From NCBI GenBank assembly GCA_963677595.1, contig OY782041.1, forward strand, positions 2,144,001-2,208,000: 64,000 nt of DNA. The letters are read 5' to 3'. The stretch's first letter is position 1, and each line of letters starts with the position of its first letter. The stretch comes from Spirochaetia bacterium. GTDB lineage: Bacteria > Spirochaetota > Spirochaetia > CAKZLE01. This document shows positions 35,322 to 64,000 of this stretch, piece after piece. The position numbers and the translations under genes were made by a program. A model generated the notes under the pieces. The model had not been told where the DNA came from and searched no databases. It saw only the letters and a list, made by a program, of their open reading frames with translations.

Positions 35322-35405
35322 GCCCGAATGGCGGAATTGGTAGACGCGCTAGTTTCAGGGACTAGTGACCTCGCGGTCGTGGAAGTTCGAGTCTTCTTTC
35401 GGGCA
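35322..35405 (+). tRNA. tRNA-Leu (anticodon CAG), CCA not encoded
   Basis: GCCCGAA/TTCGGGC acceptor, GGCGGAATTGGTAGACGC D arm, CTAGT-TTCAGGG-ACTAG anticodon arm, long variable arm, GTTCGAGT T loop. Confidence 0.96.
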
Positions 35406-35436
35406 TCTTTATAAGACGAAATTGATACAAATTATG

Positions 35437-35466
35437 AAAGCCGGTCCTTTGTGATTGGCTTTTTTT
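35437..35466 (+). terminator. Terminator after tRNA
   Basis: AAAGCCGGTC...GATTGGCTTT then T-run. Confidence 0.65.
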
Positions 35467-44178: not shown

Positions 44179-44246
44179 GTGCGTCCCTCCTGTTAATAGC
44201 TAATTGTACTATTAAAAAGGAGGATTGTAAAGCTCTATGTTGTTAA

Positions 44247-46465: not shown

Positions 46466-47221
46466 TCAGGCAGATCCTACCGAGCGTACCGTACTCATCG
46501 CTTCCCTCATATTGAGTTCTCCGGAGTCAAAGAAGATCGTAGAATGCACTATCCGATCAGTGATGGCATCAGCCTGGGGGCCTCCGCCGAGTCTATCTAG
46601 CCACTCTTCTGGGGTAAATTGCGTACAGAAGATGGTACTTCCGTTCTGGTATCGAGACTCGATCACCTCAAATACAAACGAAACCTGTATGGCATCCAAG
46701 ACGGATGACATCCATTCATCAATGATCAGCAGATCACAACTCTGTAACTTTCTTACCAGCTTACGCCGTCCTCCGACTTTGGGCTCTTGAAGCAGGAACT
46801 CTTCAAGAAGATCGGGCATGCGGTAATATCTCACCTTGTAACCGCTTATACAGGCCTGCTTCCCGATTGCACACGCCAGCCAGGTCTTCCCAACGCCGGT
46901 AGGACCACTGAAAGCGACATTATGCATGCATTTCACGAACGCACAGGATCCGAGCTGCAGCAAGAGACTTCTGTCGATGCCTCTCTTTTCGTAATGCACG
47001 GAGTGAATGTCTGCAGTCGGATACCGGAAATGGGCTCCCTTGACGAGACGTTTAATCTTGGCATCCTGCTTGAGTTGATACACATAGTCGATGATATATT
47101 GCATCCGCTCGTCGAAAGGCATTGTGTTAAATAGTACGTCATCCTGCTGCTTTTGGAGGATTTCGACCATTTCCGGTAAGTTAAGTTCTCTCAGCTTCCT
47201 GATGGATTCGTCATTGATCAC
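46466..47221 (-). CDS. istB: IS21 helper ATPase IstB
   Basis: GPTGVGKTWLA, LLIIDEW, ADAITDRIVH. Confidence 0.92.
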   Translation of the reverse strand: MINDESIRKLRELNLPEMVEILQKQQDDVLFNTMPFDERMQYIIDYVYQLKQDAKIKRLVKGAHFRYPTADIHSVHYEKRGIDRSLLLQLGSCAFVKCMHNVAFSGPTGVGKTWLACAIGKQACISGYKVRYYRMPDLLEEFLLQEPKVGGRRKLVRKLQSCDLLIIDEWMSSVLDAIQVSFVFEVIESRYQNGSTIFCTQFTPEEWLDRLGGGPQADAITDRIVHSTIFFDSGELNMREAMSTVRSVGSA

Positions 47222-48165
47222 TGGTTGCCTCCCTTGCCGAAGTTGCTGTAGTAATCGGCCCCTCTGGTGAACAGGGTTGGCTGATTGCTCTCCTTCTGTT
47301 TTGTTTCGAGGTCCTCCAGGTAGATCTGGTCTTGATTCGAGCTGAGGATAGAATTAAGATGGGCATACCGAGGGCTCCCGAACCCCTGCTTGAGGGCAAT
47401 CTGGCAAGCGATCTCGAGTCTCTCGTAGGTGTATTTCCTTCCAAGGCGAAGGATGGACAGGGCTGGGTTGAAGCCCTGTTCTTTCACCTCGACACTATCG
47501 AACACCCGCTGTACAATCACCGTGGTATTGTTGCCGATTTCGCAGGCCCACGCCAGGATGCGCTCCATCGACCATTCCTGAAACTGGCCATCTTTTGGCA
47601 TATCTTCCTGATCTGTCCGGTATTTGTTCTTGGCATACGGGCCAAAGACCTGATGGGTCTTGATCCGCTCCCCATTGTGGAAAATCTCAATTCGGCTTGT
47701 CATGACCTTGAGGTCCACTTTCTTTCCCAGATAGGCGTGGGGACAGGAGTAGAAGTTCTTCTTGAAGGCAACATGGCTGTTGAGCTGAACCTTTCGGTTG
47801 TAATACCAGGTGCTTGCCTCGTACGGATATTTCGGCAAGGGGTTCAGCCGGGGAAGCTCTTCTTCCGTGAAGCACAGATACCGACTCTTCTCCCGTTTCT
47901 GGAACTCCTCAGTATTGTATTCAGCGAGCTTCTCTTTAACGGCCTGTTTCAAGGATGCAAGCGAGGTAAAGGTGGTATTCCTGAGGCGTGCAATGATAGC
48001 CGTGGCCACATCCCCCACCACACCCTCAACCGTCGGCTTCTGTTTGGGTTTGCGGACCCCAGCGGGGAGGATGGCCGTCTTGTAATGAATGGCAAGTTCT
48101 TCATAGGCATCATTGAGGATGATCTCACCCTCCTTTGGATGTGCCGTAACACCCGTGAGCAGGTT
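47218..48165 (-). pseudogene. istA: IS21 transposase IstA, 5'-truncated
   Basis: NLLTGV, RKPKQKPTVEG, NFYSCP; sequence above 48165 is unrelated AT-rich DNA. Confidence 0.82.
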
Positions 48166-48268
48166 TAATGTAAAGAAATCATAATGGCAACGGATGTGGC
48201 TAATATAATTACTTGTAAGTAAATAATTAATGTTATTCTTACCATTATAAATCTCAACCAGGAGGTTC

Positions 48269-49510
48269 ATGATGGATGAACAACGAACAATTAAAGAATC
48301 GATTACGTTGATAAGAGATGTCATCGTTAATCACACAGAACAAAGTAAGGTCTTCTACGAACGCATTTTTAACCGCATCGAAAGCTTTGCGGAAGGCTAT
48401 CCTGAAGAAGCATCTGAAAAGGAAATTCTTTTTGCATTCTATGAAGATTTGACAGGAGAAAAACCTTTCTTAAAACCATCATCTGCGAAAGTGGGTTTTA
48501 TTCGAAAGACAGGGATTGTAATAAATCTCTACAGAATTATGTGTGGTCAGGAATTCGGCAAAAAAGCAGTATTCTTCGATGCAAATCAACGTATATGGTT
48601 TTCTCCAATGCTTGAAGCTTATGCTGACTGGCAGCAGGACTGTGGGAAAAGCAAGTTAACAATAGGAACGAGAATTGGAAGAATTAAGGTTCTGTTCAAT
48701 TACTTGGATCAAAGAGGGCTTTCAAGCATTTCAGATGCAAGCATTGAGGACTTTATTGAGTTCCCAGGTTACCTGAAAAATAGAGGTTACACTTCTCAGG
48801 GGTGTCACAACATACTCTATACCGTCAGAGATTACCTGAAGTCACCTAACGTGAAGAGGATGATTGGATGCAACCCCATGCCAATCTTTTCTCGAATGCA
48901 CACAAACAAGCATGAACGACTGCCATCTTACTATTCTGCAGAGGAAATCAGGAAGGTTTTGAGTTCGATAGATAGAGAGACATACATCGGTCGACTAGCC
49001 TACGCCTTCATGCTACTAGGATGTGTTTACGGTATCAGAAGCTGTGACATAAAGAACCTGAAGCTTGACTCCATCAACTGGGATGAAAGCAAGATTTCGT
49101 TTGTTCAGCACAAAACCAAAGTGCCGGTGGAATTTCCATTGCTGACTGAGGTCAAATTTGCACTCCTCGACTACATAAAGAATGCAAGACCAAAATGTGA
49201 TCTGCCTTTTGTATTCTTGCGAACCAGACCACCTATATCACCTTTTAGTCAGAACAATCACCTGTCTGATGTAATCAGGAAAGTATTCGAAAAAGCTGGC
49301 ATTGATACGACGGGAAAGCATTGCGGGCTACATTCTCTAAGGCATAGTCTTGCTACAACACTGACAGAGATGTCTGTGCCAATCAATGAAATCACGACGA
49401 TTCTTGGACATTCTTCAATGACACCTACACTCTCATACATTTGGTCCGACATCCCTCATCTACGACTTGCTGCAGAGGAGGTGCCGATCTATGCCAAGAC
49501 GTCCAAGTAA
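48269..49510 (+). CDS. Tyrosine recombinase (RitA-like)
   Basis: YGIRSCDI, QHKT, HSLRHSLAT, ILGH, catalytic Y, C-terminal LRLAAEEVP. Confidence 0.88.
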   Translation: MMDEQRTIKESITLIRDVIVNHTEQSKVFYERIFNRIESFAEGYPEEASEKEILFAFYEDLTGEKPFLKPSSAKVGFIRKTGIVINLYRIMCGQEFGKKAVFFDANQRIWFSPMLEAYADWQQDCGKSKLTIGTRIGRIKVLFNYLDQRGLSSISDASIEDFIEFPGYLKNRGYTSQGCHNILYTVRDYLKSPNVKRMIGCNPMPIFSRMHTNKHERLPSYYSAEEIRKVLSSIDRETYIGRLAYAFMLLGCVYGIRSCDIKNLKLDSINWDESKISFVQHKTKVPVEFPLLTEVKFALLDYIKNARPKCDLPFVFLRTRPPISPFSQNNHLSDVIRKVFEKAGIDTTGKHCGLHSLRHSLATTLTEMSVPINEITTILGHSSMTPTLSYIWSDIPHLRLAAEEVPIYAKTSK

Positions 49511-49561
49511 CCACATTATTGACCAGTTTGAAGACAATTGCTTTAAACCATACTTCATTAG
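49491..49561 (+). pseudogene. 5' stub of next RIT gene, cut by IS-E
   Basis: GGAGG RBS and ATG overlapping the recombinase end; frame cut by IS end at 49562. Confidence 0.45.
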
Positions 49562-51408
49562 CCTACGATAAACCGAAAAGTAGAACCATAATTTCGGCTT
49601 AACTCAAGCCCTTCATGCCTGCAGCTTCAGGGTCTCGGACTTGAACATCTTGAGGCTCAGAGAAGCCGGTACCTTCACCTTCAACTTCTGGTAGAAATCC
49701 CGTACCTGCTTGTTCGGGACTTCTACCAGCACCGTTCCGTCCCGCTTCTTCATACACATGAGTGATTGGGTCTTCCCGATCAACCGATTCGTGGAGATGC
49801 CCGGTCCTGAGAGCCTGCTTCGTAACTGCAGCAGGGCAATAGTCGCGATGATGTCTGAAAGCAACTTGCCCCTGACGGTGAGATCTGACCACTTTGACAG
49901 CGGCAGCAGATTCAGGTACTCCTTGCTGGTCTTGAATACCGTCTCGATCTGCGTCCTGCCGAAATAGTCATCAAGCTTTTCGTCAGCCTCCTTGAGTTCA
50001 GTGGAAAGCAGGATAAAGAACCCGAAGCGCACCGCATACCAGTTCTTCTCCTTATCGGTCATCTTACCGTACTCCGCTTCATGGTTCAGGCGGTACTTCC
50101 TATTCCCCTCCAAAGCATTGTCCTTGTCCACGTAGACATATGCATGCATCGGGCACCCGAAGACCTCGACCTCATAGTGCTTGCCGAAATAGGTATGTCC
50201 TTGGCGGATAAACTCATACTTGGCATTACTCATCAGTTTCTTAGCCTGATGATAGAGGGGTTTGTACGGGTATCCCTTCTTTGCCGGCATTCGGACAGTG
50301 ATGGTCTTCCCCTCTTCGTTTCCGCACTGGAACGCTTCGATCAGCTCCCGGCTGGCATAGCCTGCATCCAGTACGAAGTTGTTGATGCACACATCCAGAC
50401 TCTCTGCGACATCGGACATGGTCGATCGAAGCGTGCTCAGATCAAGGAGGTTTCCCGGGATCACGGTATACCATACCGGCAGGCCAGTCTTCTCATCAAG
50501 AATGAGCACCAGCCTCGTCTGGATGGAGGTGGAGGTGATCCCATGACTGCACAACGCATTGAACGGGTTGTCCCGAATGGTATTGGGTAAGGGCGTAGAA
50601 TCCACATAGCAGCCAACACCGAACTGTGGGTCCTTACGTCTCATATGGGAGACGAACGCCTTGAAGAATGCCATTCGGCTTGTATCCTCACCCATGAGAG
50701 AGAAGTAGACCGTATCGCTTCCCAGGGAGCCCAACGGGATGTTCTCAAAGAGGTAGGAGGCGAATGACTTCCCGATGAAGTCATCACAGGAGACCCGGGA
50801 ACCATCTTTCAAGACAGAGTGAAGGAGGTGGGTGAGTACGCGCTCATACTCCTTATCGTGGGAAAAAGCCCTCCTCAATACGGCAAGTAGCCCTGATTTT
50901 TCACACACGGTAAGAAAGAGGTACGCATCACCGAATACCGTATGGATCTCTGGTTCGGGGAACAGTACCTGTGATGAGATTCTCGGATCTTCCCGTTCGA
51001 CACTCGTAAAGGCATCAGGGACTGAATCATAGGCTACCAGCCCGCGTGTGGGAGACAGGAAGACCCCGCTTTTCCTGTCAGGGGAAATAGATACCACTTT
51101 CCCGAGTTTCTCTCGGGTGGTGTGGCGGGACCTCCCCTTGTAGGATGGATCATATTCAGTATCCATGATGGAAGCACTGCCGGAGCGGACACTGCCGTCA
51201 GGATCGAGAACCAATTTCTGCACTTTGATGAAAGCCATGAACCGGTACCTGCCTTTCCGAAGATATGGTGCTATGTAGAACCATACCTATAGTACAACAG
51301 AACAGGTAAACATGCAAGGGATACCGCAGGAATGCACGGAGAATGCAGGAATTTATAGGTTTTGCGTATCAGCAAGGACTATGGTTCTACTTTTCTGTTT
51401 ATCGTAGG
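49562..51408 (-). mobile_element. IS-E (IS1634/IS4-like), no target duplication
   Basis: 29 bp IRs CCTACGATAAAC(C/A)GAAAAGTAGAACCATA with 1 mismatch; flanks differ. Confidence 0.88.
49613..51238 (-). CDS. IS-E DDE transposase
   Basis: YVDSTP, PGNLLD, LDAGY, YFGRTQIETVFKTSK, GKLL. Confidence 0.86.
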   Translation of the reverse strand: MAFIKVQKLVLDPDGSVRSGSASIMDTEYDPSYKGRSRHTTREKLGKVVSISPDRKSGVFLSPTRGLVAYDSVPDAFTSVEREDPRISSQVLFPEPEIHTVFGDAYLFLTVCEKSGLLAVLRRAFSHDKEYERVLTHLLHSVLKDGSRVSCDDFIGKSFASYLFENIPLGSLGSDTVYFSLMGEDTSRMAFFKAFVSHMRRKDPQFGVGCYVDSTPLPNTIRDNPFNALCSHGITSTSIQTRLVLILDEKTGLPVWYTVIPGNLLDLSTLRSTMSDVAESLDVCINNFVLDAGYASRELIEAFQCGNEEGKTITVRMPAKKGYPYKPLYHQAKKLMSNAKYEFIRQGHTYFGKHYEVEVFGCPMHAYVYVDKDNALEGNRKYRLNHEAEYGKMTDKEKNWYAVRFGFFILLSTELKEADEKLDDYFGRTQIETVFKTSKEYLNLLPLSKWSDLTVRGKLLSDIIATIALLQLRSRLSGPGISTNRLIGKTQSLMCMKKRDGTVLVEVPNKQVRDFYQKLKVKVPASLSLKMFKSETLKLQA

Positions 51409-51696
51409 TTGAGTCAGCCGGTGTTCATTACTGATGGTAATGATTTATCAGAATATGATGAGCTTGCCAGTCGGTATGAGACGATCCAGAATCGGCTCAG
51501 GCACATCTCATTAGAGGTCACTAACCGGAAGCAGAAGATATCACAAATAGGACGGTTCTGCCGGATGATACAAGAGACTGATGAAGTCATCACGGAGTTC
51601 TACCCCGAGCAGTTTATTGTCTTGGTGGATTACATGGCGGTGTATTATGGAAAGGGGGATATCAGGGTGACATTTAGGGATGGGACAACGTTATAG
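51409..51696 (+). pseudogene. C-terminal remnant of a large serine recombinase-like gene
   Basis: Coiled coil then ITEF...LVDYMAVY..GDIRVTFRDGT typical of these C-termini. Confidence 0.6.
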
Positions 51697-51984: not shown

Positions 51985-52662
51985 GTGAGAAAGATTCAAG
52001 TTGCCATTTTCGTTTTGATTACTATTGTACTTTTCGTATCTTGTGTGTCTTCTAGTGAGTATGTGGGTATTCTTGGAAAATTACCAGCAAATTGGTGGGA
52101 AAAAGATATCGCAGAAATTCAAAATCGATTCAGGAATACAAGCACAGGTGAATCAAAGAATGTTCTTATATTTGTTGGATATAGCGATTTCCCTTCAAAT
52201 AAAACGCAAACGATAGCAATCTATCAAGCCCGACTAGATGCACAAATGCAGCTATCACAATATCTAACCCAAAAATTAACAGGTATTGTCCAATCAAAGA
52301 ACTTCTCCACTACATTAGAAGAGGAACTTAAAGATGCTGGAGCTTCTAATGAAGAAATTATTACCTCAAAAGGTATATTAGAATCTGCCTTCTCACAGTT
52401 TATGTCAGACTTTGCTTCAACTCAGTTTTCATCTTTTAAAGAGGAAAGTCATCATACAAACAAAGCTGATGGGTATTATGAAGCATGGGTTTGTTATTCT
52501 GTATCAGATCAAATTCTTGAAGAGAGTCAAAAATTACAAGATCAAGCTTTCAGAACATTACTAGAAGAATCTGGAGCATATAAAGAAACTATGATAGCTG
52601 TTAATGAAGAAATAGCTCTTCAAGTTAAAGATGCACTGATCTCGGAAGTATTTAATGAATAA
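51985..52662 (+). CDS. Lipoprotein, LPP20-like
   Basis: Lipobox FVSC; PANWW, FVGYS, AIYQARLDAQMQLS, YYEAWVCY pattern. Confidence 0.6.
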   Translation: MRKIQVAIFVLITIVLFVSCVSSSEYVGILGKLPANWWEKDIAEIQNRFRNTSTGESKNVLIFVGYSDFPSNKTQTIAIYQARLDAQMQLSQYLTQKLTGIVQSKNFSTTLEEELKDAGASNEEIITSKGILESAFSQFMSDFASTQFSSFKEESHHTNKADGYYEAWVCYSVSDQILEESQKLQDQAFRTLLEESGAYKETMIAVNEEIALQVKDALISEVFNE

Positions 52663-52710
52663 ACAGTTCCTATACGGTGACCTCTAATGGATCACCGTAA
52701 GAGAATTTTT

Positions 52711-54081
52711 ATGAAAGAAATTAAATACTTATTCTTTATAATAATAATATCTCACTTTCCCATCCTTATTGGTTGTACATCTTTGCAGGATACTACACCG
52801 AATTGGATAAGCATAACACCCGAGAGGAATGAGAATGTAGAATTCTTTGTTGGAGGACCAAGTACAGATATTGCTGAATCAAAAGAGATGGCTCTCTCTG
52901 AAATATCACATACTATTTCTACAGCAGTGAGTGCAATAAGTTCTTCATACACATATGCCTCCTATGAAGACATCAATGAAAGTATTAATGAGAAAATGCT
53001 ATCTACATTTGACAACTCATCTGAAGCAATAAGTTTTACAGTTTTTTCAGGAGTGAAAATAATTGAACGATGGTATGATCCTAACAATGACGAGTGGTGG
53101 GTATTAGCTTCGGTTTGTCAGTCTGATTTACTTAAAGGGATAGATGAAACTGCTGAGCAAATTGAGAAGAATGCAGAAGAAAAGCTGCAGTTTTCTAATC
53201 AAGTGAAACAGTTAGTAGAATCAATTACGGAAAGCGAATCAAAGTCAGGATTCTTTGATTTGTTGCTACGCTATATTGAAGTTTATAATCTTTTCCCAAG
53301 TAGTCAGTATAGAGATCATATTTATGCTGAGATTGATGGGCAGTATCTGAATATTTTCTCCTTCATTAAAACTAAAATAAATCAGTTATTAGCCAGCAAC
53401 ACTATCACTGCTGAGCCCCAGAATACTATCCTGATGAAAAACAATAATAAGACCATCATATTATCCAGGGAACCCAATAAGGATCATCTTGGAAAACTGA
53501 GAATGGTCGTTGAGAATGGTACTAAGGAAATAATCTACAGCGATCTGTGGGACTTAACACAACCCATCTGTGATTTGAAAATCTCAAGCGAAAAGTTACC
53601 TATGGGGGAATCTCTACTACATATCTATCCTGACTATACTAGTGTGGGTATAATGATACCCGAAGAAATGGTTATCCCGGTCTTGAATATTCCTATCACG
53701 ATCATTGATCAGATACCAAGCGTTGAGTTTGATTTATCGAAAAGTATCCTTATAGAAAATGTTAGCGAGCATCTTGAGGCACTACTGACTGATAAGTCTG
53801 TTGATTACATTATCTCGGATGAAGAGTCTTTTCCCAAAATAGTTATTTCACTGAATCAGGAGGAAGGTTCCAAGCTTGGAGCCATGCAGGCAGTACGCAC
53901 TGAAATAGTTATTTCGTATGAAGCTGAAAAAGGGGAGTCTTATGTCTTTATTTCGGCCCCAGTTAAAGGTTATGGGAGTAGTTTAAGGGAAGCCGCAAAG
54001 GACTCTTTTCAGAAAGCATTAGCGGAAACACAAATGAATCCGCAGTGTGGTGCATTTATTGAGAGTTATATAACCAAGTAA
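52711..54081 (+). CDS. Lipoprotein with N-terminal LPP20-like domain
   Basis: Lipobox LIGC; PNWI, FFVG, ALSEISHTI, GVKIIERWYD..WWVLASV. Confidence 0.7.
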   Translation: MKEIKYLFFIIIISHFPILIGCTSLQDTTPNWISITPERNENVEFFVGGPSTDIAESKEMALSEISHTISTAVSAISSSYTYASYEDINESINEKMLSTFDNSSEAISFTVFSGVKIIERWYDPNNDEWWVLASVCQSDLLKGIDETAEQIEKNAEEKLQFSNQVKQLVESITESESKSGFFDLLLRYIEVYNLFPSSQYRDHIYAEIDGQYLNIFSFIKTKINQLLASNTITAEPQNTILMKNNNKTIILSREPNKDHLGKLRMVVENGTKEIIYSDLWDLTQPICDLKISSEKLPMGESLLHIYPDYTSVGIMIPEEMVIPVLNIPITIIDQIPSVEFDLSKSILIENVSEHLEALLTDKSVDYIISDEESFPKIVISLNQEEGSKLGAMQAVRTEIVISYEAEKGESYVFISAPVKGYGSSLREAAKDSFQKALAETQMNPQCGAFIESYITK

Positions 54082-54151
54082 ATAGAAGAGATTAACAAAT
54101 CTCTAGCTTTATGGATTTTAAAGTACTACATGCTATCGGAGGGGAAGAAAG

Positions 54152-54967
54152 ATGATTACAAAAAAACTATGGATGCTTATAGGTTTAATACTAATGATAT
54201 CATCAACCGTATTCGCACTTGATATAAATACTGTAGCAGTTATCCCCTTTGATGGTAAGGTAATATCACAGGAAGAAGCAACTACCTTGTCTAATACACT
54301 GCAAAATAGATTAGCCCAATATGGTACTTACGATCTTGTGAGTAGAATTAAGATTAATGAAGTAATGAAAGAACATGAATTCTCATCTTCTGATTTTGTT
54401 AACCAAGAAACTGCAATTCGAGCAGGAGAACTACTATCAGCACATTGGTTATTCGTAGGATCCGTTAGTAAACTTGGTAATGCTTACCTTGTTTATGTTG
54501 AATTGGTTAATACTGAAACTGGAAGGATTGTTACGGGTGCTGATGGGGAAGCAAAGACAATAGAAGGTCTAAAAACAGAAGTTGAGAATTTAGCAAAGAA
54601 GTTATCAACCTTTGTCTTATCCAGCTTTAACTATTCATTTGATGTATCTGGTACAGTCATGCTCCATAATCTGGATATACATTCCCTTGGGGTAAATTTA
54701 GGTTTCACCTATAACCTGATAAGAGGTATCTCAGCTGGAGCCTGGATTGGTATGCATGTCCGCAGTGAAGATAGTGAAATGGATCTGATGTATGGTGGGA
54801 CCCTTATGCTGGGGGATCCCAGAAAACAAGCACTTACTGTCAAGGTGGGGCACATACCCGCAATAGGGATTGTTTTCCACCAAGCCTTCATTGAAGTTTC
54901 TCCGCTCATGTTGTTAGGGTATGAAGATGCAATGGGTATCTCAATGGGGTATTCAGTTTGTTTTTAG
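54152..54967 (+). CDS. CsgG/HfaB (TolB_N-like) domain protein with C-terminal beta-strand region
   Basis: SPI signal; VAVIPF, LVSRIKINEVMKEHEF, AGELLSAHWLFVGSV, LVNTETGRIV; terminal GISMGYSVCF resembles an outer-membrane beta signal. Confidence 0.75.
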   Translation: MITKKLWMLIGLILMISSTVFALDINTVAVIPFDGKVISQEEATTLSNTLQNRLAQYGTYDLVSRIKINEVMKEHEFSSSDFVNQETAIRAGELLSAHWLFVGSVSKLGNAYLVYVELVNTETGRIVTGADGEAKTIEGLKTEVENLAKKLSTFVLSSFNYSFDVSGTVMLHNLDIHSLGVNLGFTYNLIRGISAGAWIGMHVRSEDSEMDLMYGGTLMLGDPRKQALTVKVGHIPAIGIVFHQAFIEVSPLMLLGYEDAMGISMGYSVCF

Positions 54968-54977
54968 GTAAGAATGT

Positions 54978-56873
54978 ATGAAAAAAAGTTTTATATTGCT
55001 GAGTATCTTGGTTTTCACTATTGCAGGATTGCTTTTGAGCTGCGATCTATTCTCATTGGATGAGTGGTTTGATTTTCCAACCAAAGCCATAATCACAACA
55101 GAAGATACTGGTGAAGTGAAAATCGGGGATACCATTACCCTTAATGGCAACACCAGTGTATGCGGCATGAATGAAACTTTGACCTACTCTTGGGAGATCA
55201 CCCAAAAGCCAGCAGGATCAACTGTAGCCTTAGAGACTCCAACGTCAAAACAATCGTCGTTAATTCCCGATTATGCAGGTATCTATAACATAAGACTAAC
55301 AGTAGAGGACGACGATGAAGATAGTGATAGCTGTGAATATACCCTAGAGGTATCAGCAGTCATCACCGCTTCAGCCGGAACAGGAGGGAGTATCAACCCG
55401 AGTGGAGATGTAAGTGTAACTTATGGAAGTGATAAGACGTTTACGATAACACCAGAAACAGGGTATGAGGTTTCTGATGTGCTCGTTGATGGAGTGAGTG
55501 TTGGAGCTGTTACGAGTCATACCTTCGATGATGTAACTGAGAACCATACGATAAGTGCAACGTTCTCATTAGTTGAGTATGTGATTACTGCCACCGCAGG
55601 AACAGGAGGAAGCATCAGTTCGAGTGGGGATGTGAGTGTGACTCATGGGAATGATAAGACGTTTACAATAACACCAGAAACAGGATATGAGATTTCAGAT
55701 GTTCTTGTAGATGGGACGAGTGTTGGAGCGGTTTCAAACTATACATTCACAGATGTGATAGAAAACCATACGATTAGTGCGACATTCGCATTAGTTGAGT
55801 ATGTGATTACTGCCACCGCAGGAACAGGAGGAAGCATCAGTTCGAGTGGGGATGTAAGTGTAACGCATGGGAATGATAAGACGTTTACAATAACACCAGA
55901 AACAGGATATGAGATTTCAGATGTTCTGGTTGATGGGACAAGTGTTGGTACGGTTTCAAACTATACATTCACAGATGTGATAGAAAACCATACGATCAGT
56001 GTGACGTTCTCATTAGTTGAGTATGTGATTACTGCCACTGCAGGAACTGGAGGAAACATCAGTCCGAGTGGGGATGTGAGTATAACCCATGGGAGCGATA
56101 AGACATTTACGATAACACCAAATACTGGATATGAGATCTCTGATGTATTGGTAGATGGGACAAGTGTTGGAGTTGTAACGAGTCATACTTTCAATGATGT
56201 AATAGAGACTCATACGATTAGTGTGACATTCGTGCAGAGTGAACTCACAATTACATTTAATAAGAATGCAACAGATGCAATAGGCACAATGCCTACAGAG
56301 ACTGTAACAAATGGGGAAGAGATAACTCTACCTGCAGTTGGGTTCAGCAGGTCTGGATATACCTTCTCTGGTTGGTCATTGAGTGCTAGTGGTGCAGTAG
56401 TGTATGAAGATCAGGTAACAGTGACGATGGGTTCTTCAGATGTAACATTGTATGCGGTGTGGGAAATTACAGAGTACAGTATTGGTTCTTTAGGTCCAGC
56501 CGGTGGGTATATATTTTATGATAAAGGTACATATTCCGATGAATGGAGATATTTAGAAGCAGCACCATATGGATGGTATAGTGGAGCAGTCGATCCACTT
56601 AAAGATTGGATGAACGCCTTATTAGTATGTGCAGATATTGAAATTCAGGGATTTTCTGATTGGGAATTACCATCAAAACAGTATTTAGATTTAATGTATC
56701 ATAACTTGCATGTTTTAGGTCTCGGAAGTTTTACAAGTGGATCTTATTATAGCTCAACAAGGTATGATGATGAAAATGTTTGGTCTTTAAACTTCAATAT
56801 CCAATATGATGGATATTGGCATGATGATAATACGTCTCTTCAAAGATATGTACGTCCGATAAGGAAATTTTAG
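54978..56873 (+). CDS. Surface lipoprotein 1: PKD-like + 4x 74-aa repeats + 1 InlB-B/Flg_new repeat + DUF1566-like tip
   Basis: Lipobox LLSC; GPAGGYIFYDKG..WRYLEAAP, DWELPS, YVRPIRKF. Confidence 0.8.
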   Translation: MKKSFILLSILVFTIAGLLLSCDLFSLDEWFDFPTKAIITTEDTGEVKIGDTITLNGNTSVCGMNETLTYSWEITQKPAGSTVALETPTSKQSSLIPDYAGIYNIRLTVEDDDEDSDSCEYTLEVSAVITASAGTGGSINPSGDVSVTYGSDKTFTITPETGYEVSDVLVDGVSVGAVTSHTFDDVTENHTISATFSLVEYVITATAGTGGSISSSGDVSVTHGNDKTFTITPETGYEISDVLVDGTSVGAVSNYTFTDVIENHTISATFALVEYVITATAGTGGSISSSGDVSVTHGNDKTFTITPETGYEISDVLVDGTSVGTVSNYTFTDVIENHTISVTFSLVEYVITATAGTGGNISPSGDVSITHGSDKTFTITPNTGYEISDVLVDGTSVGVVTSHTFNDVIETHTISVTFVQSELTITFNKNATDAIGTMPTETVTNGEEITLPAVGFSRSGYTFSGWSLSASGAVVYEDQVTVTMGSSDVTLYAVWEITEYSIGSLGPAGGYIFYDKGTYSDEWRYLEAAPYGWYSGAVDPLKDWMNALLVCADIEIQGFSDWELPSKQYLDLMYHNLHVLGLGSFTSGSYYSSTRYDDENVWSLNFNIQYDGYWHDDNTSLQRYVRPIRKF

Positions 56874-56915
56874 ATTTGCATTTCTTGAGATAAAAAAATT
56901 TTAGGGATTTCTAAA

Positions 56916-59900
56916 ATGGGGAAAAAAGTACTAATAATAAGTTTAATTGCTTGCTTTTTTTTCAATGTAATAAGTTGTGATCTCTTTTCTTTAGAAGAAT
57001 GGTTTGATTTCCCAACTAAAGCCGTTATCACAACGAATGATATCTCTGATATACATATAGGAGAAACTGTTTCTCTTGATGGTAGTACCAGTGAATGTGG
57101 CATGAATGAGACTTTGATTTATACATGGGAAATAGCAGAAAAACCATTAGGATCAATAGCTACTCTTGATCATCCTACATCTAAAACTTCTTCTTTTACT
57201 CCAGATTATGCAGGAACTTATATAATTAGCCTAACCGTAGTAGATGATGATGAAGATAGCAATAGCTGTAACTATTCAATCGATGTTTCCGCTATTATTA
57301 CTACTTCAGCTGGAACAGGAGGGAGTATCACCCCTAGTGGGGCTGTGAGTGTTACACAGGGGAGTGATAAGACCTTTACCATTACACCAGAAACAGGGTA
57401 TGAGATATCTGATGTGTTCGTAGATGGCGAAAGTGTTGGAGCTGTAACGAGTCATACCTTTAGTGATGTAACTGAGAACCATACTATCAGTGCGTCGTTC
57501 TTATTAGTTGAATATGTCATAACAGCATCCGCGGGAACTGGGGGAAGTATCAATCCGAGCGGAGATGTGAGTGTAACTCATGGAAGTGATAAAACGTTTA
57601 CGATTACCTCAGAGACAGGATATGAGGTGTCTGATGTACTTGTAGATGGAAAGAGTGTTGGAGCTGTTACGAGTCATACCTTCGATGATGTAACTGAGAA
57701 CCATACGATAAGTGTAACATTCTCATTAGTTGATTATGTAATTACTGCTTCAGCCGGAACAGGAGGGAGTATCAATCCGAGCGGAGATGTGAGTGTAACG
57801 CATGGGGATGATCAGACATTCACCATTACACCAGAAACAGGGTATGAGATAGCAGATGTGTTCGTAGATGGCGAAAGTGTTGGAGCTGTAACGAGTCATA
57901 CCTTCAATGATGTAACTGAGAACCATACGATAAGTGCAACATTCTCATTGGTAGATTATGTAATTACTGCTTCGGCTGGAACAGGAGGGAGTATCAATCC
58001 GAGCGGAGATGTGAGTGTAACGCATGGGGATGATAAGACATTCACCATTACACCAGAAACAGGATATGAGGTATCTGATGTGCTCGTTGATGAAGTGAGT
58101 GTTGGAGCTGTAACGAGTTATACTTTTTATGATGTAACAGAGAACCATACTATCAGTGTTTCATTCGTTTTAGGTGAATATACAATTACATTTTATAAGA
58201 ATGCGACAGATGCGATAGGAGTAATGCCACCAGAAGATGTTATAAATGGAGAAACAATAGTCTTACCTATTGTTGGATTCAGTAGAGCAGGGTATACCTT
58301 TTCTGGATGGTCTACAAGTTCCGGTGGTGAAGTGGAATTTACTGATCAATCATCATTTACAGTTGGATCCTCGAATGTCACACTATTTGCGATATGGGAA
58401 GGTAATACATATATAATCACATTTGATAAAAATGATGAAAGTGCAATAGGAACTATGCCAGACCAGAATGTAAAAAGTGGTATTGTAGTAAATCTTAATG
58501 CAAATGTGTATGAAAAAGTCGGAAGTATTTTTACTGGTTGGGCAACTAATCCTAGTGGGCCTGTAGTATACGAAGACCAAGCTTCTTTCATGATTGGTAT
58601 TTCAAATGTGACACTATATGCGCAATGGGAAGAAGTGAAGAACTTGCTTCCTACAAATGGCACTACAACAATTGATACTACACCTACTTTCAGTTGGAGT
58701 GAGATTAACTATTCAACTGGATATCATTTTCAGCTAGTTAAAGATGAAGCACTTTTTGATTCTAGTGATTATATCCCTGTAACTTCAAATTCTTATGTCC
58801 CAGAGGAAGTATTAGATAATTTGAGTACATATTATTGGCGGTTACGAGTAGCTAACAATGAAAAACTGGGTAGCTGGACAGAAGCCAATTCTTTCAGTAT
58901 TGATTTTGGTGATGTAAATAATCTTCTACCAGTAAGTGGTTCTGGAACATCCGACACTACTCCTTTATTTAGCTGGGATGAAGTACCAGGAGCTATAAAC
59001 TATGAATTTCAAATATCTGAAAGTGAACCAGATTTAGATACTGCTACTAAAGAAAATTGTGTTTCAAATGAGTACGAACCCTCTAACGCGCTAGAAAACA
59101 CAAAAACGTATTATTGGCGTGTGAGAGCGAGAAATAATGATGGAGTATATGGAGAGTGGAGTGGTAATAACAGTATTTCAATCAATTGGTTGGGAGAAAT
59201 TACTGATAAAGTCCCAGTTGATGGATCTGTAACGATTGATCAGACCCCAAGATTAAGTTGGGATGTAAATGATAGTGCTACCTCATATGAATTACAGTTT
59301 TCTGAAGTTGGATTTGATTTAAATGATTCCGAAATTCGAATCATAGACAATAAGTATTTCTATCTTGAAGATGAATTAATCATTGGTGAAGAATATCAGT
59401 GGCGAGTTAGGGCTAAAGATAGTGGAGGCTCTTATGGTTCTTGGAGCGAAATAAACAAGTTTACTGTAAAATCATCCTTCTCAATTCGAGATACTAGAAC
59501 AAAAGGGAGCATTATATTCTATGACAAGGGATCATATAGTGATGGTTGGAGATATTTAGAAGTCGCACCCTATGGTTGGTATAACGGGGGGAATGATCCA
59601 TTATATGATTGGGGTGTTTGGTCCTATACTGTGAGTCCCTCTGCAACAGCTAGAGGAATCGGATATGGAAGTATAAATACAACTAATATCGTTTTATTTC
59701 ATGATCGCCTTGGAACAGAGGGGTATCTCGGTTATGCAGAAGGATGGGGAAGTTATTATGAAAATCCTTCGGCATATAATACTTGGAGTAATGGGCAGGT
59801 AGCTGCAAAACTTTGTGTAGAGGCTGAGATTGTAGGATATACTGATTGGTTCTTACCTTCAGCAGATGAATTAAAACAAATCTACAATATTCTATATCTC

Positions 59901-60056
59901 TCAGGAATCGGTAACTTTATGGCGAATGGTACACCATATTGGAGTTCAAGTGAATATGATTCAAAAGAAGCAATGAGATTAGGATTTAATCCATATTATT
60001 ACAAAGATCTTTCAAAATCATCTAGTTGTTATATTAGGCCTGTTAGGAGTTTCTAG
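56916..60056 (+). CDS. Surface lipoprotein 2: PKD-like + 4 repeats + 2 Flg_new + 3 Fn3-like + DUF1566-like tip
   Basis: Lipobox VISC; three TP.(F/L)SW...Y.WR.R units; IFYDKGSYSDGWRYLEVAP, DWFLPS, YIRPVRSF. Confidence 0.8.
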   Translation: MGKKVLIISLIACFFFNVISCDLFSLEEWFDFPTKAVITTNDISDIHIGETVSLDGSTSECGMNETLIYTWEIAEKPLGSIATLDHPTSKTSSFTPDYAGTYIISLTVVDDDEDSNSCNYSIDVSAIITTSAGTGGSITPSGAVSVTQGSDKTFTITPETGYEISDVFVDGESVGAVTSHTFSDVTENHTISASFLLVEYVITASAGTGGSINPSGDVSVTHGSDKTFTITSETGYEVSDVLVDGKSVGAVTSHTFDDVTENHTISVTFSLVDYVITASAGTGGSINPSGDVSVTHGDDQTFTITPETGYEIADVFVDGESVGAVTSHTFNDVTENHTISATFSLVDYVITASAGTGGSINPSGDVSVTHGDDKTFTITPETGYEVSDVLVDEVSVGAVTSYTFYDVTENHTISVSFVLGEYTITFYKNATDAIGVMPPEDVINGETIVLPIVGFSRAGYTFSGWSTSSGGEVEFTDQSSFTVGSSNVTLFAIWEGNTYIITFDKNDESAIGTMPDQNVKSGIVVNLNANVYEKVGSIFTGWATNPSGPVVYEDQASFMIGISNVTLYAQWEEVKNLLPTNGTTTIDTTPTFSWSEINYSTGYHFQLVKDEALFDSSDYIPVTSNSYVPEEVLDNLSTYYWRLRVANNEKLGSWTEANSFSIDFGDVNNLLPVSGSGTSDTTPLFSWDEVPGAINYEFQISESEPDLDTATKENCVSNEYEPSNALENTKTYYWRVRARNNDGVYGEWSGNNSISINWLGEITDKVPVDGSVTIDQTPRLSWDVNDSATSYELQFSEVGFDLNDSEIRIIDNKYFYLEDELIIGEEYQWRVRAKDSGGSYGSWSEINKFTVKSSFSIRDTRTKGSIIFYDKGSYSDGWRYLEVAPYGWYNGGNDPLYDWGVWSYTVSPSATARGIGYGSINTTNIVLFHDRLGTEGYLGYAEGWGSYYENPSAYNTWSNGQVAAKLCVEAEIVGYTDWFLPSADELKQIYNILYLSGIGNFMANGTPYWSSSEYDSKEAMRLGFNPYYYKDLSKSSSCYIRPVRSF

Positions 60057-60130
60057 TAGTAAGATGATTTATGTAGAAAATTTTTGTAATTATAAATATT
60101 TATTAAAGAACATTTATAAGGTTTTGAGTT

Positions 60131-62554
60131 ATGAAAAGAAGTCTGGTACTATTTACTATCTTAGTAGTCATTATAGCATGTCTGATCAGCTGTGATCTAT
60201 TCTCCTTAGAGGATTGGTTCGACTTTGCAACAAAAGCAGTAATCACTTCTAATGATACCTCTGATATACATATAGGAGAAGCTGTTTCTCTTGATGGTAG
60301 CACCAGTGAATGTGGCATGAATGAGACTTTGATTTATACATGGGAAATAGCAGAAAAACCATTAGGATCAATAGCTACTCTTGATCATCCTACATCTAAA
60401 ACTTCTTCTTTTACTCCAGATTATGCAGGAACTTATATAATTAGCCTAACCGTAGTAGATGATGATGAAGATAGCAATAACTGTAACTATTCAATCGATG
60501 TTTCCGCTATTATTACTGCTTCAGCTGGAACAGGAGGGAGTATCACCCCTAGTGGGGCTGTGAGTGTTACACAGGGGAGTGATAAGACATTCACGATTAC
60601 ACCAGAAATAGGTTATGAGATAACAGATATCGTAGTGGATGATAGTAGCATAGGGGCTGTATCTACATACACCTTCTCAGATGTTTCAGAGAACCATACA
60701 ATCAATGCGACATTCTCATTAGTAGATTATGTCATTTCTGCTTCAGCAGGAACTGGAGGAAGTATTAGTCCAAATGGCGATGTAAGTGTAACTTATGGAA
60801 GTGATAAGGCGTTTACGATTACCTCAGAGACAGGATATGAGGTGTTTGATGTACTTGTAGATGGAAAGAGTGTTGGAGCTGTTACGAGTCATACCTTCAA
60901 TGATGTAACTGAGAACCATACGATAAGTGCAACATTCTCATTGGTAGATTATGTAATTACTGCTTCGGCTGGAACAGGAGGGAGTATCAATCCGAGCGGA
61001 GATGTGAGTGTAACGCATGGGGATGATCAGACATTCACCCTTACACCAGAAACAGGATATGAGGTATCTGATGTGCTCGTTGATGAAGTGAGTGTTGGAG
61101 CTGTAACAAGTTATACTTTTTATGATGTAACAGAGAACCATACTATCAGTGCGTCGTTCTTATTAGTTGAATATGTCATAACAGCATCCGCGGGAACTGG
61201 GGGAAGTATCAATCCGAGCGGAGATGTAAGTGTAACTCATGGGGATGATCAGACATTTACGATAACTCCAAATACTGGATATGAGATCTCTGATGTTCTA
61301 GTGGATGGATTGAGTGTAGGTGCAGTGATAAGCTATACGTTCATTGATGTGACAGAGAATCATACGATCAATGCGTCGTTCTCATTAGTTGAATATGTCA
61401 TAACAGTATCAGCAGGGACAGGGGGCAGTATTACTCCAAATGGCGATGTAAGTGTAACACATGGAAGTAATAAGACATTTACGATTACATCAGAGACAGG
61501 ATATGAGGTGTCTGATGTGCTAATAGATGGATCTAGTGTTGGAGCTGTAACGAGTCATACCTTCTATGATGTAACTGAGAACCATACGATCAGTGCGTTG
61601 TTCACATTAATTGAATATGTCATAACAGCATCAGCGGGGACTGGAGGGAATATCAGCCCAAGTGGCGATGTAAGTATAACTCATGGGAGTGATAAGACGT
61701 ACACCATCACACCAAATACAGGATATGAGATATCTGATGTACTCGTAGATGGATCTAGTGTTGGAGCTGTAACGAGTCATACTTTCAATGATGTGACTGA
61801 GAACCATACGATCAGTGTTACTTTTTCTCAGAGTGAATTTACCATTACATTTATTAAAAATGCTGCTGATGCAACTGGTACTATGTCTTCTGAAACAGTA
61901 AAAAGTGGAGATGCAATTTCTCTTCCTACCGTTGGATACACCAGAGTAGGGTATACCTTCTCAGGTTGGGCAACGAGTTCTGAAGGGATCGTAGTATATG
62001 CTAATCAGGCGTCGTTTACAATGGATTCTTCGGATATGACGTTATATGCAATTTGGACACGTAAAGAGTATGCTATTGGGACAGTAGGTCCTGGAGGCGG
62101 TTATGTTTTTTATGATAAAGGGTCTGATGTTGACGGTTGGCGGTATATTGAAGCGGCGCCATATGGTTGGTTTGATGGAGGAGATGATCCGCTGATGATT
62201 TGGGGTGGGTATGGAATTAGTATTGGTACAGCAGAATCGGTGGGTACTGGTCGGAATAATACTGAATTAATTGTAAATGAATTAGGAAATAATTATTATG
62301 CTGCAAAAATATGTGAATCTGCAATAATTAATGATCTATCAGATTGGTTTTTACCTTCGATTGAAGAAGTTAATTTAATGTATGATATTCTGTTATTAAA
62401 CAATCTCGGGAATCTCTTAAATGAGTATGATTATTGGAGTTCTTCAGATTCAGATAGTATTTCTCATGCTTTATCTAAATTGTTTAGTAATGGTGGCGTT
62501 ATGGGGGAATTAAAAAATACTCATAATTGGGTAAGACCTGTTAGATATTTCTAG
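60131..62554 (+). CDS. Surface lipoprotein 3: PKD-like + 6 repeats + 1 Flg_new + DUF1566-like tip
   Basis: Lipobox LISC; GPGGGYVFYDKG, DWFLPS, YWSSS, WVRPVRYF. Confidence 0.8.
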   Translation: MKRSLVLFTILVVIIACLISCDLFSLEDWFDFATKAVITSNDTSDIHIGEAVSLDGSTSECGMNETLIYTWEIAEKPLGSIATLDHPTSKTSSFTPDYAGTYIISLTVVDDDEDSNNCNYSIDVSAIITASAGTGGSITPSGAVSVTQGSDKTFTITPEIGYEITDIVVDDSSIGAVSTYTFSDVSENHTINATFSLVDYVISASAGTGGSISPNGDVSVTYGSDKAFTITSETGYEVFDVLVDGKSVGAVTSHTFNDVTENHTISATFSLVDYVITASAGTGGSINPSGDVSVTHGDDQTFTLTPETGYEVSDVLVDEVSVGAVTSYTFYDVTENHTISASFLLVEYVITASAGTGGSINPSGDVSVTHGDDQTFTITPNTGYEISDVLVDGLSVGAVISYTFIDVTENHTINASFSLVEYVITVSAGTGGSITPNGDVSVTHGSNKTFTITSETGYEVSDVLIDGSSVGAVTSHTFYDVTENHTISALFTLIEYVITASAGTGGNISPSGDVSITHGSDKTYTITPNTGYEISDVLVDGSSVGAVTSHTFNDVTENHTISVTFSQSEFTITFIKNAADATGTMSSETVKSGDAISLPTVGYTRVGYTFSGWATSSEGIVVYANQASFTMDSSDMTLYAIWTRKEYAIGTVGPGGGYVFYDKGSDVDGWRYIEAAPYGWFDGGDDPLMIWGGYGISIGTAESVGTGRNNTELIVNELGNNYYAAKICESAIINDLSDWFLPSIEEVNLMYDILLLNNLGNLLNEYDYWSSSDSDSISHALSKLFSNGGVMGELKNTHNWVRPVRYF

Positions 62555-62665
62555 GGTTTAGAAAATGTTTTTTGTATACCTCATATTGGTACCTAATACA
62601 GTCAAAAAAACATTAGATATTTCTGTGGGATATTTTGTTTGTAGGGCGGAAACTTAGGGTATAAA

Positions 62666-64000
62666 ATGATGAACAAAAAAATTGTAATAATATGTACCAT
62701 CATTCTTATTCTTGTAGGAATAGCCAGTTGTGATCTGTTTTCATTAAACGAATGGTTTGATTTTCCTACAGAAGCAGTTATAACAATCGATGATTCAACA
62801 GTCCCAATTATTGGAGATTCTATTACCCTAGATGGTAGTTCGAGCAAATGTGGTATGAATGAATCATTAATCTATAATTGGGAGGTAATACAAAGACCGT
62901 TAGGTTCTGTTGCCACACTAGAACAAACTACTGCACAGCAATCCTCGTTAATTCCTGATTATGCAGGAACATATATAATTAGATTAACCGTAGTAGATGA
63001 TGATGAAGATAGCAATAGCTGTAACTATTCAATCGATGTTTCCGCTATTATTACTGCTACAGCTGGAACAGGAGGGAGTATCACCCCCAGTGGTGATGTG
63101 AGTGCTACACAGGGGAGTGATAAAACATTTACGATTACACCAGAAACAGGGTATGAGATAGCAGATGTGTTCGTAGATGGCGAAAGTGTTGGAGCTGTTA
63201 CGAGTCATACCTTCGATGATGTAACTGAGAACCATACGATAAGTGCAACATTCTCATTGGTAGATTATGTAATTACTGCTTCAGCCGGAACAGGAGGGAG
63301 TATCAATCCGAGCGGAGATGTGAGTGTAACGCATGGGGATGATAAGACATTCACCATTACACCAGAAACAGGGTATGAGATAGCAGATATCATAGTGGAT
63401 GATAGCGGCATAGGTGTTGTATCTACTTACACCTTCTCAGAAGTTTCAGAAAACCATACAATCAGTGCAACATTTGTGCAGAGTGAATTCACGATTACAT
63501 TTGTTAAGAATTCAACTGATGCAACTGGTACTATGTCTCCAGAATCAGTAACAAGTGGTGATACCATCTCTCTCCCTGCTGTTGGATATACGAGATCAGG
63601 GTATACCTTCTCTGGATGGGCAACGAGTTCTGTAGGAACCGTAGTATATACTGATCAGGCGTCATATACGATGGGATCATCAGATGTAACGCTATATGCC
63701 GTTTGGCAGAGTACCGTTCAATATATGGTAAGTTTCGATAAGAATGATAGTGCAGCAACAGGAAGCATGTTAAGCCAATGGATTACGCAAGGGCAGACTG
63801 AGAATCTTGATCCCAACGGGTATAGTAAGGAAGGTTGGTCATTCGTAGGTTGGTCTATGACAAGTAGTGGGAGTATTGCATATGTTGATCAAGCCCCATT
63901 TACCATGGGAAGTAATCATGTACCTTTGTATGCTTTATGGAAAATAAATGATTATACTATAACCTTTGATAAAAATGACGAGTTAGCTGAAGGAGAGATG
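62666..64000 (+). CDS. Surface lipoprotein 4 (runs off window; not in ORF track)
   Basis: MMNKKIVIICTIILILVGIASCDLFSLNEWFDFPTEAVIT...; 2 repeats then at least 2 full Flg_new units and the start of a third. Confidence 0.85.
   Translation, partial: MMNKKIVIICTIILILVGIASCDLFSLNEWFDFPTEAVITIDDSTVPIIGDSITLDGSSSKCGMNESLIYNWEVIQRPLGSVATLEQTTAQQSSLIPDYAGTYIIRLTVVDDDEDSNSCNYSIDVSAIITATAGTGGSITPSGDVSATQGSDKTFTITPETGYEIADVFVDGESVGAVTSHTFDDVTENHTISATFSLVDYVITASAGTGGSINPSGDVSVTHGDDKTFTITPETGYEIADIIVDDSGIGVVSTYTFSEVSENHTISATFVQSEFTITFVKNSTDATGTMSPESVTSGDTISLPAVGYTRSGYTFSGWATSSVGTVVYTDQASYTMGSSDVTLYAVWQSTVQYMVSFDKNDSAATGSMLSQWITQGQTENLDPNGYSKEGWSFVGWSMTSSGSIAYVDQAPFTMGSNHVPLYALWKINDYTITFDKNDELAEGEM

Follow-up and report, generated by a model that had tools for sequence, protein, structure and literature searches.

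A predicted outer-membrane barrel protein with a CsgG-like domain, encoded beside four modular lipoproteins in a Spirochaetia island: a candidate partner-lipoprotein module

The transport of spirochete lipoproteins to the cell surface and their retention there are partly settled in Borrelia only, through an LptD homologue, and the lipoprotein translocase of Leptospira is stated to be unknown (PMC11358297). Here we describe a seven-gene operon, g1-g2-g3-L1-L2-L3-L4, which begins at position 51985 of a 64,000-nucleotide stretch of a Spirochaetia bacterium genome (contig OY782041.1, positions 2,144,001 to 2,208,000; this whole stretch is called the window below). The original prediction had read the product of the third gene, g3, as a CsgG-like secretion pore within a platform for export or anchoring of the lipoproteins encoded downstream. 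Our models instead predict that g3 combines a small barrel in the outer membrane with a domain in the periplasm, and is not a CsgG pore. The locus is real and, as an adhesin island, looks ordinary; the barrel gene upstream, however, indicates a module of partner plus lipoprotein that is widespread in Spirochaetota and apparently undescribed.

Several described systems come close to this arrangement. In the type IX secretion system (type B), a barrel gene, porP/sprF, is reported to be linked to the gene of its cognate surface protein, with orphan substrates occurring too (PMC12618676, PMC9143113). The PorP/SprF families are unrelated to g3, and the present locus differs further in that the cargo is lipid-anchored, its conserved part is N-terminal and g3 carries a periplasmic TolB_N-like domain. 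Slam carries tetratricopeptide repeats and a larger barrel, whereas the barrel of g3 has eight strands. Of 353 Slam genes, 185 are reported to be neighbours of lipobox genes, compared with 27 of 52 here (see below), and the Slam substrates are reported to share an eight-stranded barrel domain (PMC5449769), whereas the cargo here shares an N-terminal base or motif and showed no TbpB-like barrel by Pfam. In Myxococcus, the variable surface receptor TraA reportedly needs TraB, a barrel partner with a periplasmic domain, for adhesin function (PMC6626042); the likeness of TraB to g3 is one of arrangement, and homology is not expected. By analogy, the system described here would work like PorP/SprF, TraB or Slam, without our assigning it to any of them.

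Closer in host or in cargo, a DUF1566 lipoprotein gene directly follows the gene of a noNterm Omp85 protein in Leptospira, which is discussed as a possible lipoprotein translocase (PMC11358297). That barrel belongs to the Omp85 family, whereas g3 combines an eight-stranded barrel with a TolB_N-like domain. Treponema TvpA is a lipoprotein with an Lcl_C/CLec-type tip that is diversified by a diversity-generating retroelement (DGR); it has the Lcl_C-type tip in common with L1-L4, whereas a DGR is absent here. As a trio, g1, g2 and g3 recall HP1454/HP1456 (Lpp20)/HP1457 of H. pylori and FlgO/FlgP/FlgT of Vibrio, both of which comprise two Lpp20-fold proteins and one protein of the LpoB/TolB_N fold. 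To our knowledge, none of these carries a barrel fusion or is associated with arrays of adhesins. HP1454 and HP1456 are reported to share an operon and a fold (PMC11756786), and HP1457 to be an LpoB homologue (PMC11394524). The hosts of the trio have no FliG and no class-A penicillin-binding protein (PBP) matches. With CsgG, finally, g3 shares an alpha/beta domain fold and the outer-membrane location; CsgG, however, is a lipoprotein with long membrane hairpins and a curlin substrate, whereas g3 lacks these and has a barrel of its own. In a Brachyspira preprint, a protein annotated as CsgG is interpreted as part of the curli machinery (10.1101/2025.01.03.631275). The mostly open-access literature that we searched contained no description of the operon or of the gene pairing, in a search that did not extend to the RxNPxDP motif introduced below.

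The operon consists of seven open reading frames (ORFs) on the plus strand, separated by gaps of 10-111 bp. Its GC content is 37.8%, compared with 54.6% for the host genome (G000), a single 4.33-Mb contig that is 95% complete. These figures bear out the predicted run of seven co-oriented, low-GC genes with short gaps. L4 ends at window coordinate 65119, beyond the window end, and is followed by TRAP transporter genes; the array, foreseen as at least four paralogous modular lipoproteins, therefore has exactly four members.

51985..52662, plus strand: g1, 225 aa, lipoprotein (Cys20) with a predicted Lpp20/Tip-alpha-like fold with helical insertions
52687..54081 (likely start 52711), plus strand: g2, 464 aa, lipoprotein whose N-terminal, LPP20-like domain is a homologue of g1; additional unassigned domains
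54152..54619, plus strand: g3 N-part, cleavable signal peptide without Cys, then a domain of the TolB_N/LpoB/FlgT/PelC/CsgG superfamily (aa 25-156), predicted periplasmic
54620..54967, plus strand: g3 C-part (aa 157-271), predicted 8-stranded OmpA-like outer-membrane barrel with C-terminal Phe
54978..56873, plus strand: L1, 631 aa, PKD base, 4 Flg_new_2 units, 1 Flg_new unit, Lcl_C tip (the shortest tip)
56916..60056, plus strand: L2, 1046 aa, PKD base, 4 Flg_new_2 units, 2 Flg_new units, 3 Fn3/Ig-like units, Lcl_C tip
60131..62554, plus strand: L3, 807 aa, PKD base, 6 Flg_new_2 units, 1 Flg_new unit, Lcl_C tip
62666..64000, continuing to 65119, plus strand: L4, 817 aa, PKD base, 2 Flg_new_2 units, about 5 Flg_new units, Lcl_C tip

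The product of g3 (271 aa, 54152-54967) has no Cys among residues 1-40, hence no lipobox, and no Cys is conserved across eight family members. Its Pfam match to CsgG is above the cut-off (E 2e-6) and covers only profile positions 30-102 of 210; LpoB matches with E 9e-6, TIGR02722 scores 40 bits against a cut-off of 110, and no Pfam hit to SlipAM (PF04575) was obtained. An AlphaFold model based on five sequences predicts two domains with a mean pLDDT of 84. The N-terminal domain (aa 25-156) aligns with TolB 7mx5 (Z 12.0, rmsd 2.5, 113 residues aligned), an LPHT flagellar ring chain (Z 12.6, rmsd 4.5), LpoB 4q6l (Z 11.1, rmsd 2.7, 109 aligned), PelC (Z 10.9) and CsgG (Z 10.0, rmsd 4.2, 114 of 206 residues), and displays a single short hairpin (E99-108/E111-120) without the long hairpins of CsgG. 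The C-terminal part (aa 157-271) aligns with OmpA 3nb3 (Z 11.0, rmsd 2.8, 104 aligned) and also matches OprF, while an Atlas search with the barrel returned leads under 0.9 only. Since soluble eight-stranded barrels score just 1-2 Z lower, the membrane call rests on amphipathy: seven of the eight strands present one hydrophobic face, and strand 2 does so more weakly. Strands 5-7 are only 6-8 residues long, and Pro236 and Pro251 are invariant.

Adjacency to a particular kind of lipoprotein gene is conserved among the close relatives of g3. Word-index searches returned only four relatives of g3 and one close variant of g1. Full-length g3 is found at seven loci in four genomes (the window, L011, L021, L023, L086, L082 and L184, the last found after the alignments and profiles were built; P0002 and P0003 were left out of these locus contexts). 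At each of the seven, the neighbour of g3 is a gene for a lipoprotein that begins with a PKD-like domain; this gene lies downstream in five cases and upstream in two. The pair g1-g2 is present at five of the seven loci and is thus optional, as the remaining two consist of g3 and cargo. L011 is a paralogous locus in the host genome itself, where g1, g2 and g3 are about 42, 30 and 26% identical to those of the window; L021 and L023 both lie in G001, and L086 in a Sphaerochaetaceae genome. What the neighbourhood survey retains of the predicted layout is g3 with the N-terminal PKD base. The upstream genes are repeatedly found next to genes for large modular lipoproteins, whereas DUF1566 (now Lcl_C) arrays do not recur: Lcl_C-tipped neighbours occur at the window only, with none at the five other g3 loci scanned with Pfam and none by eye at L184, and the other loci encode lipoproteins with Fn3 stalks and other ends. 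In keeping with a link between g3 and the base, four relatives without g3 show no strong base match either, a comparison that is partly circular in that neighbours of g3 supplied the base profile. A metagenome scan additionally gave 23 loci with the N-domain only, of which four were inspected and none entered into the counts.

Around these loci we also noted a NarL-like response regulator gene (by eye) divergent upstream of g1 at L011:8178-8879 (G000:C1:3233177-3233878) and L021:10974-11645, and none at the window locus. At L199 and L201, in two other genomes, a different protein with a barrel-type C-terminus is encoded directly upstream of PKD-based lipoproteins, possibly an alternative partner.

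Structure prediction for a complex of g3 (23-271) with the L2 base (21-126) gave a score of 0.39, the best of three controls reaching 0.01, with at least 84% contact agreement between runs and a partner pLDDT of at least 76. Among 157 solved pairs, 116 attain the mark used for such scores, as do 2 of 215 mismatched ones; with scores of 0.60 or under, it is attained by only 18 of the 157 and by both mismatches. The prediction weakly suggests contact between g3 and the base.

Across the phylum, 266 of the 401 genomes of Spirochaetota match the CsgG-like N-domain of g3, often several times. We sampled 80 regions around top-scoring matches, taken from the best 150 of 854, which span 39 genomes and 82 distinct CsgG-like genes. 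Under a strict lipobox rule, a lipoprotein gene lay downstream in 21 of 57 cases and upstream in 7 of 48, compared with 24 of 269 for other genes and 122 of 3432 for ORFs of the host genome. Under a relaxed rule, a lipoprotein came next in 27 of the 41 CsgG-like genes that combine an outer-membrane-type C-terminus with a co-oriented downstream gene. Taken over all 52 genes with such a C-terminus, 11 of them without a co-oriented neighbour, the count is 27, and the pattern occurs in 16 of 21 genomes. The same rule gave 2 of 16 for CsgG-like genes without such a C-terminus and 34 of 304 for other genes, and a lipoprotein followed 1 of 12 other barrel-like genes of the host genome. The C-terminal anchors vary (DUF5683-like, PEGA-containing, outer-membrane-protein barrel), and so do the passengers, which include Kelch, FG-GAP, LamG, NHL, LRR and PKD domains and, in three cases, Lcl_C. 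Despite these widely differing passenger folds, 18 of the 27 lipoproteins carry an RxNPxDP-like motif just past the Cys. In a reverse test on 47 motif lipoproteins outside the training set, many of them from training-set genomes (2 more were dropped on short contigs), a CsgG-like membrane-type gene lay directly upstream of 14, compared with 2 of 114 in the control; 17 had a CsgG-like gene within the region, and 8 had another membrane-type gene end upstream.

The sampled regions also show other layouts. At L260 (G269:C6:17000-26800), and at L247-L286 generally, pairs of a CsgG-like membrane gene and an RxNPxDP lipoprotein alternate. Motif lipoproteins also stand in tandem arrays with no visible partner (L256, L277, L278), and at L144 (G191:C1:2598695-2606168), L162 and L165, tandem CsgG-like genes are fused not to membrane anchors but to soluble C-terminal domains, which, judged by eye, resemble carbohydrate-binding or ankyrin domains.

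The recurrence of similar barrel and lipoprotein gene pairs across spirochetes makes it likely that the barrel is a dedicated partner. Stated in full, the proposal that we favour, at about even odds, is that g3 is a dedicated outer-membrane partner or anchor that holds or stabilises surface lipoproteins via their membrane-proximal base. BamA would insert g3 into the outer membrane (the host genome encodes Omp85), and the lipoproteins would cross that membrane by a general route, possibly with help from g3. There, g3 would bind the membrane-proximal PKD base and thereby hold or stabilise the lipoproteins at the surface. The lipoproteins g1 and g2 might combine with the periplasmic domain of g3 into an optional scaffold at the inner leaflet, a suggestion made by analogy because these folds do so in FlgP/FlgT, PelC and HP1454/HP1456. 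L1-L4 are likely surface adhesins, whose tips would bind different ligands at different reach.

Several observations weigh against this partner role. The lipoboxes were called by our own heuristic, and the relaxed rule was written after the strict-rule counts were known. The genomes are related and kin are not independent, so that the counts are given without a P value, and the regions represent top-scoring matches. No window lipoprotein carries RxNPxDP, nor did the motif match in the host genome; because of this, the phylum statistics concern g3 relatives with other membrane anchors. In the reverse test, 30 of the 47 motif lipoproteins had no CsgG-like gene in the fetched region. In 13 other Spirochaetia genomes, none of 17 loci with related PKD domains had a CsgG-like gene within about 1.5 kb upstream, where two had another barrel-like gene, and the PKD base is thus not supported as a universal g3-specific signal outside this clade. 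The eight g1 loci comprise five with g3 and three without an adjacent g3: L083, from a genome with no g3 match, encodes a large lipoprotein along with g1 and an LPP20-like protein, L080 has g1 followed by an LPP20-like/DUF4384 protein at a contig end, and L081 is a g1 locus on a 3.5-kb contig. The tips, too, are not tied to the upstream genes, a link that we rejected: 9 of the 13 Lcl_C matches in the host genome lie outside the operon, and Lcl_C matches occur in four of five relatives, g3 in only one of them. Finally, synteny can arise from operon inheritance alone.

This last point leads to the first alternative, in which g1-g3 are an envelope cassette co-inherited on surface-gene islands under a common promoter and regulator, and g3 does not contact the lipoproteins. 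The window locus lies in an att-flanked island, L011 is equally poor in GC (38.5%) and sits among other lipoprotein genes, and the g3 clade is confined to four genomes; the negative counts for PKD loci and motif lipoproteins and the weak complex score point the same way. However, the adjacency survives changes of gene order, loss of g1-g2 and replacement of stalk and tip. The enrichment is moreover specific to membrane-anchored members (27/41 vs 2/16) and to the downstream side, and the alternating partner-cargo pairs of L260 do not fit simple co-inheritance. We regard this explanation as unlikely. If nothing more than co-inheritance acts, what remains of our finding is a corrected annotation together with an adhesin island.

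Under a second alternative, g3, with g1-g2, is a translocon that, like Slam with its substrates, flips the lipid anchor and the tether across the outer membrane, either through a lateral opening or through a channel at the centre of an oligomer. An adjacency rate like that of Slam favours it, as does the conserved post-Cys motif of the wider family, which resembles a targeting signal. Strands 5-7 are short and Pro236 and Pro251 invariant; in PagP and OmpW, prolines are known to create lateral gates. The fold of the N-domain, moreover, assembles into rings in PelC, FlgT and CsgG. On the other hand, an eight-stranded barrel has no polypeptide-sized lumen, and passage of Ig chains is unlikely for a barrel of this size. 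An adjacent partner is missing for many similar lipoproteins, and g3 has no match in some of the genomes that encode Lcl_C proteins. In Borrelia, an LptD homologue is reported to flip surface lipoproteins generally (10.1101/2022.12.21.521298). The LptD_2 profile gave no match in G000 and one partial match in six genomes, which does not show absence; neither does a SlipAM genome search, as it gave no match anywhere, controls included. Taken together, a translocon of this kind seems decidedly unlikely.

In a third alternative, the host seems to lack class-A PBPs and g1-g3 reinforce its outer membrane from the periplasmic side; the long lipoproteins would then point into the periplasm or be passengers with no part in this. 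TolB_N and Lpp20 folds are reported in envelope-stabilising proteins (PMC11756786), and all four trio genomes lack a Transgly match. The module is, however, patchy (absent from four of five relatives) and island-borne, and surface proteins are the typical carriers of Lcl_C, Fn3, Kelch and LamG passengers. In Leptospira, furthermore, a DUF1566 lipoprotein is reported to be surface-exposed and laminin-binding (PMC11358297). We regard such a brace as improbable.

For the predicted CsgG-type (type VIII) pore for Lcl_C-tipped adhesins speak the Pfam hit above cut-off and the structural match at Z 10.0. Against it stand the missing lipobox, the partial coverage of the profile, the equal or better scores of TolB, FlgT-ring, LpoB and PelC chains, the single short hairpin beside a separate barrel, and the lack of curlin repeats (PF07012) in six of six genomes of the order, while an E. 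coli control matches. We therefore reject a curli pore as the identity of g3, and a pore of this type for the adhesins is very improbable. The same folds occur in a flagellar accessory ring (FlgO/FlgP/FlgT-like) and in a PBP1b activator (LpoB-like), but both roles are rejected as scarcely credible, since FliG_C and Transgly (class-A PBP) gave no match in any of the four trio genomes (G000 and three others; the control searches matched in 4 and 10 of 14 genomes) and g3 has no lipobox, which removes the known jobs of these folds that depend on motor or class-A PBP. Neither FliG_C nor a class-A PBP transglycosylase matched in G000, nor in G001, G406 and G407; such a lack is known of Sphaerochaeta-type spirochetes.

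Returning to g3 as a dedicated partner, the proposal could be widened to the whole phylum. Membrane-anchored 'CsgG/LpoB-like' proteins might be the membrane component of an undescribed two-partner lipoprotein display pathway of Spirochaetota, in which each reads a cognate N-terminal signal (RxNPxDP in many lineages; the tether and PKD base here) and flips or docks its lipoprotein. The window locus would then be a version with an Lpp20-fold scaffold and four adhesins. We put this wider idea forward tentatively and regard it as doubtful. For CsgG-like domain proteins, which are routinely read as the curli pore, our evidence offers a concrete role that can be tested, that of cognate partners for lipoproteins of the surface; a candidate targeting motif, RxNPxDP, is named, and the compact operon is suited to tests in a laboratory host.

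The four lipoproteins, each with a lipobox-type Cys, are built of the same parts. Pfam finds PKD, Flg_new_2, Flg_new and Lcl_C (PF07603, the former DUF1566) in L1-L3, and the L4 tip matches Lcl_C with E 3e-4. The predicted DUF1566-like tips are thus recovered as matches in all four; among L1-L3, only that of L2 is over the cut-off. Among L1-L4, the PKD bases are 62-94% identical (94% for L2 and L3) and the Lcl_C tips 41-47%. The Flg_new_2 stalk units number 4, 4, 6 and 2 in L1 to L4, with 68-96% DNA identity. Because units are as alike between genes (78%) as within genes (79%), the sequences suggest that the stalks have been shuffled by recombination. We rejected the tips as DGR targets: the sole reverse transcriptase of the genome scores 400 bits on TIGR04416, the group II intron family, and no template repeat was seen. 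Blastn gave no near-identical second copy of the tips among the matches listed. The intron reverse transcriptase is encoded at L001 (G000:C1:3464555-3465979), adjoining tRNA-Pro.

Related lipoproteins occur elsewhere in the host genome. At L186:8456-13036 (G000:C1:2880455-2885035), a 1526-aa lipoprotein carries the nearest relative of the L2 tip; it adjoins insertion-sequence and serine recombinase genes, and g1-g3 are not present there. A cluster of paralogous large lipoproteins, one of them split by a transposase, occupies G000:C1:3205077-3228888 and is followed by LolA-like, MMPL transporter-like and outer-membrane barrel-like genes (by eye), then by Lcl_C proteins. A prophage-like region by tRNA-Ala (G000:C1:527557-537812) encodes an integrase and a collagen-like protein with a segment like an Lcl_C tip.

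Both g1 and g2 have a lipobox-type Cys, and their predicted LPP20-like character is retained as a weak likeness of fold, while neither exceeds the PF02169 cut-off: g2 scores 18.6 bits (E 0.0026) against a gathering threshold of 25.9, and none of the 15 g1 family members matches. The g1 model weakly resembles H. pylori Lpp20 and Tip-alpha. Foldseek matches it to Lpp20 5ok8 with E 0.032 and prob 0.99, and the alignment (Z 8.2, rmsd 3.4, 111/114 aligned) is not above the helical background. Comparison of g1 with g2 by hhalign gave 95.5%, and in the Atlas cluster of g1, LPP20 occurs in 14% of members, at 0.91. PDB sequence searches with g1 and g2 returned nothing meaningful. The g1 family is small and seen in spirochetes, with 3 of 401 phylum genomes; a full HMMER search gave 17 hits and 14 plausible representatives, leaving out three long repeat proteins, and alignment A4 also omits one fragment and a near-identical copy.

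Acquisition of the operon at a tRNA gene, as foreseen by the original prediction, is well supported by repeats that flank the island.

35322..35405, plus strand: tRNA-Leu(CAG), the integration site of the island
35404..35445, plus strand: left-hand copy of a 42-bp direct repeat (imperfect), starting at the tRNA-Leu 3' end

A second repeat copy (65172-65213, 81% identical) lies just past L4, and a third (77316-77366, 90% over 51 bp) includes the tRNA 3' end, both outside the window. Together with several transposases and a tyrosine integrase between tRNA-Leu and the operon, these copies are the ground for calling horizontal acquisition; the responsible recombinase is left unassigned. Contigs of one public run bridge the g1-g2-g3-L1, L1-L2, L2-L3 and L3-L4 joins with 0 differing letters, a confirmation that is not independent, as the run is probably the source sample. 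A promoter and terminator scan gave no signal above shuffles.

Within the island, window positions 35732-51340 hold a dense insertion-sequence cluster, with the tyrosine integrase at 48269-49510, and the ORF at 41916-42458 duplicates the N-terminus of an opposite-strand transposase (42397-44178). The ORF at 51343-51696 resembles, by eye, the C-terminus of a large serine recombinase, a likeness for which Pfam, NCBIfam and tblastn gave no support. At L013 (G000:C1:4050930-4061412), the att-like repeat of the island recurs after tRNA-Leu(TAA), with a second copy 10 kb away; no integrase was seen between these copies, which enclose glycyl-radical enzyme-like and activase-like genes. A second segment of the main island, with TRAP transporter and sugar catabolism genes, extends from the second repeat copy to the third (G000:C1:2209513-2221366, equivalent to window 65513-77366) and suggests tandem integration at one site.

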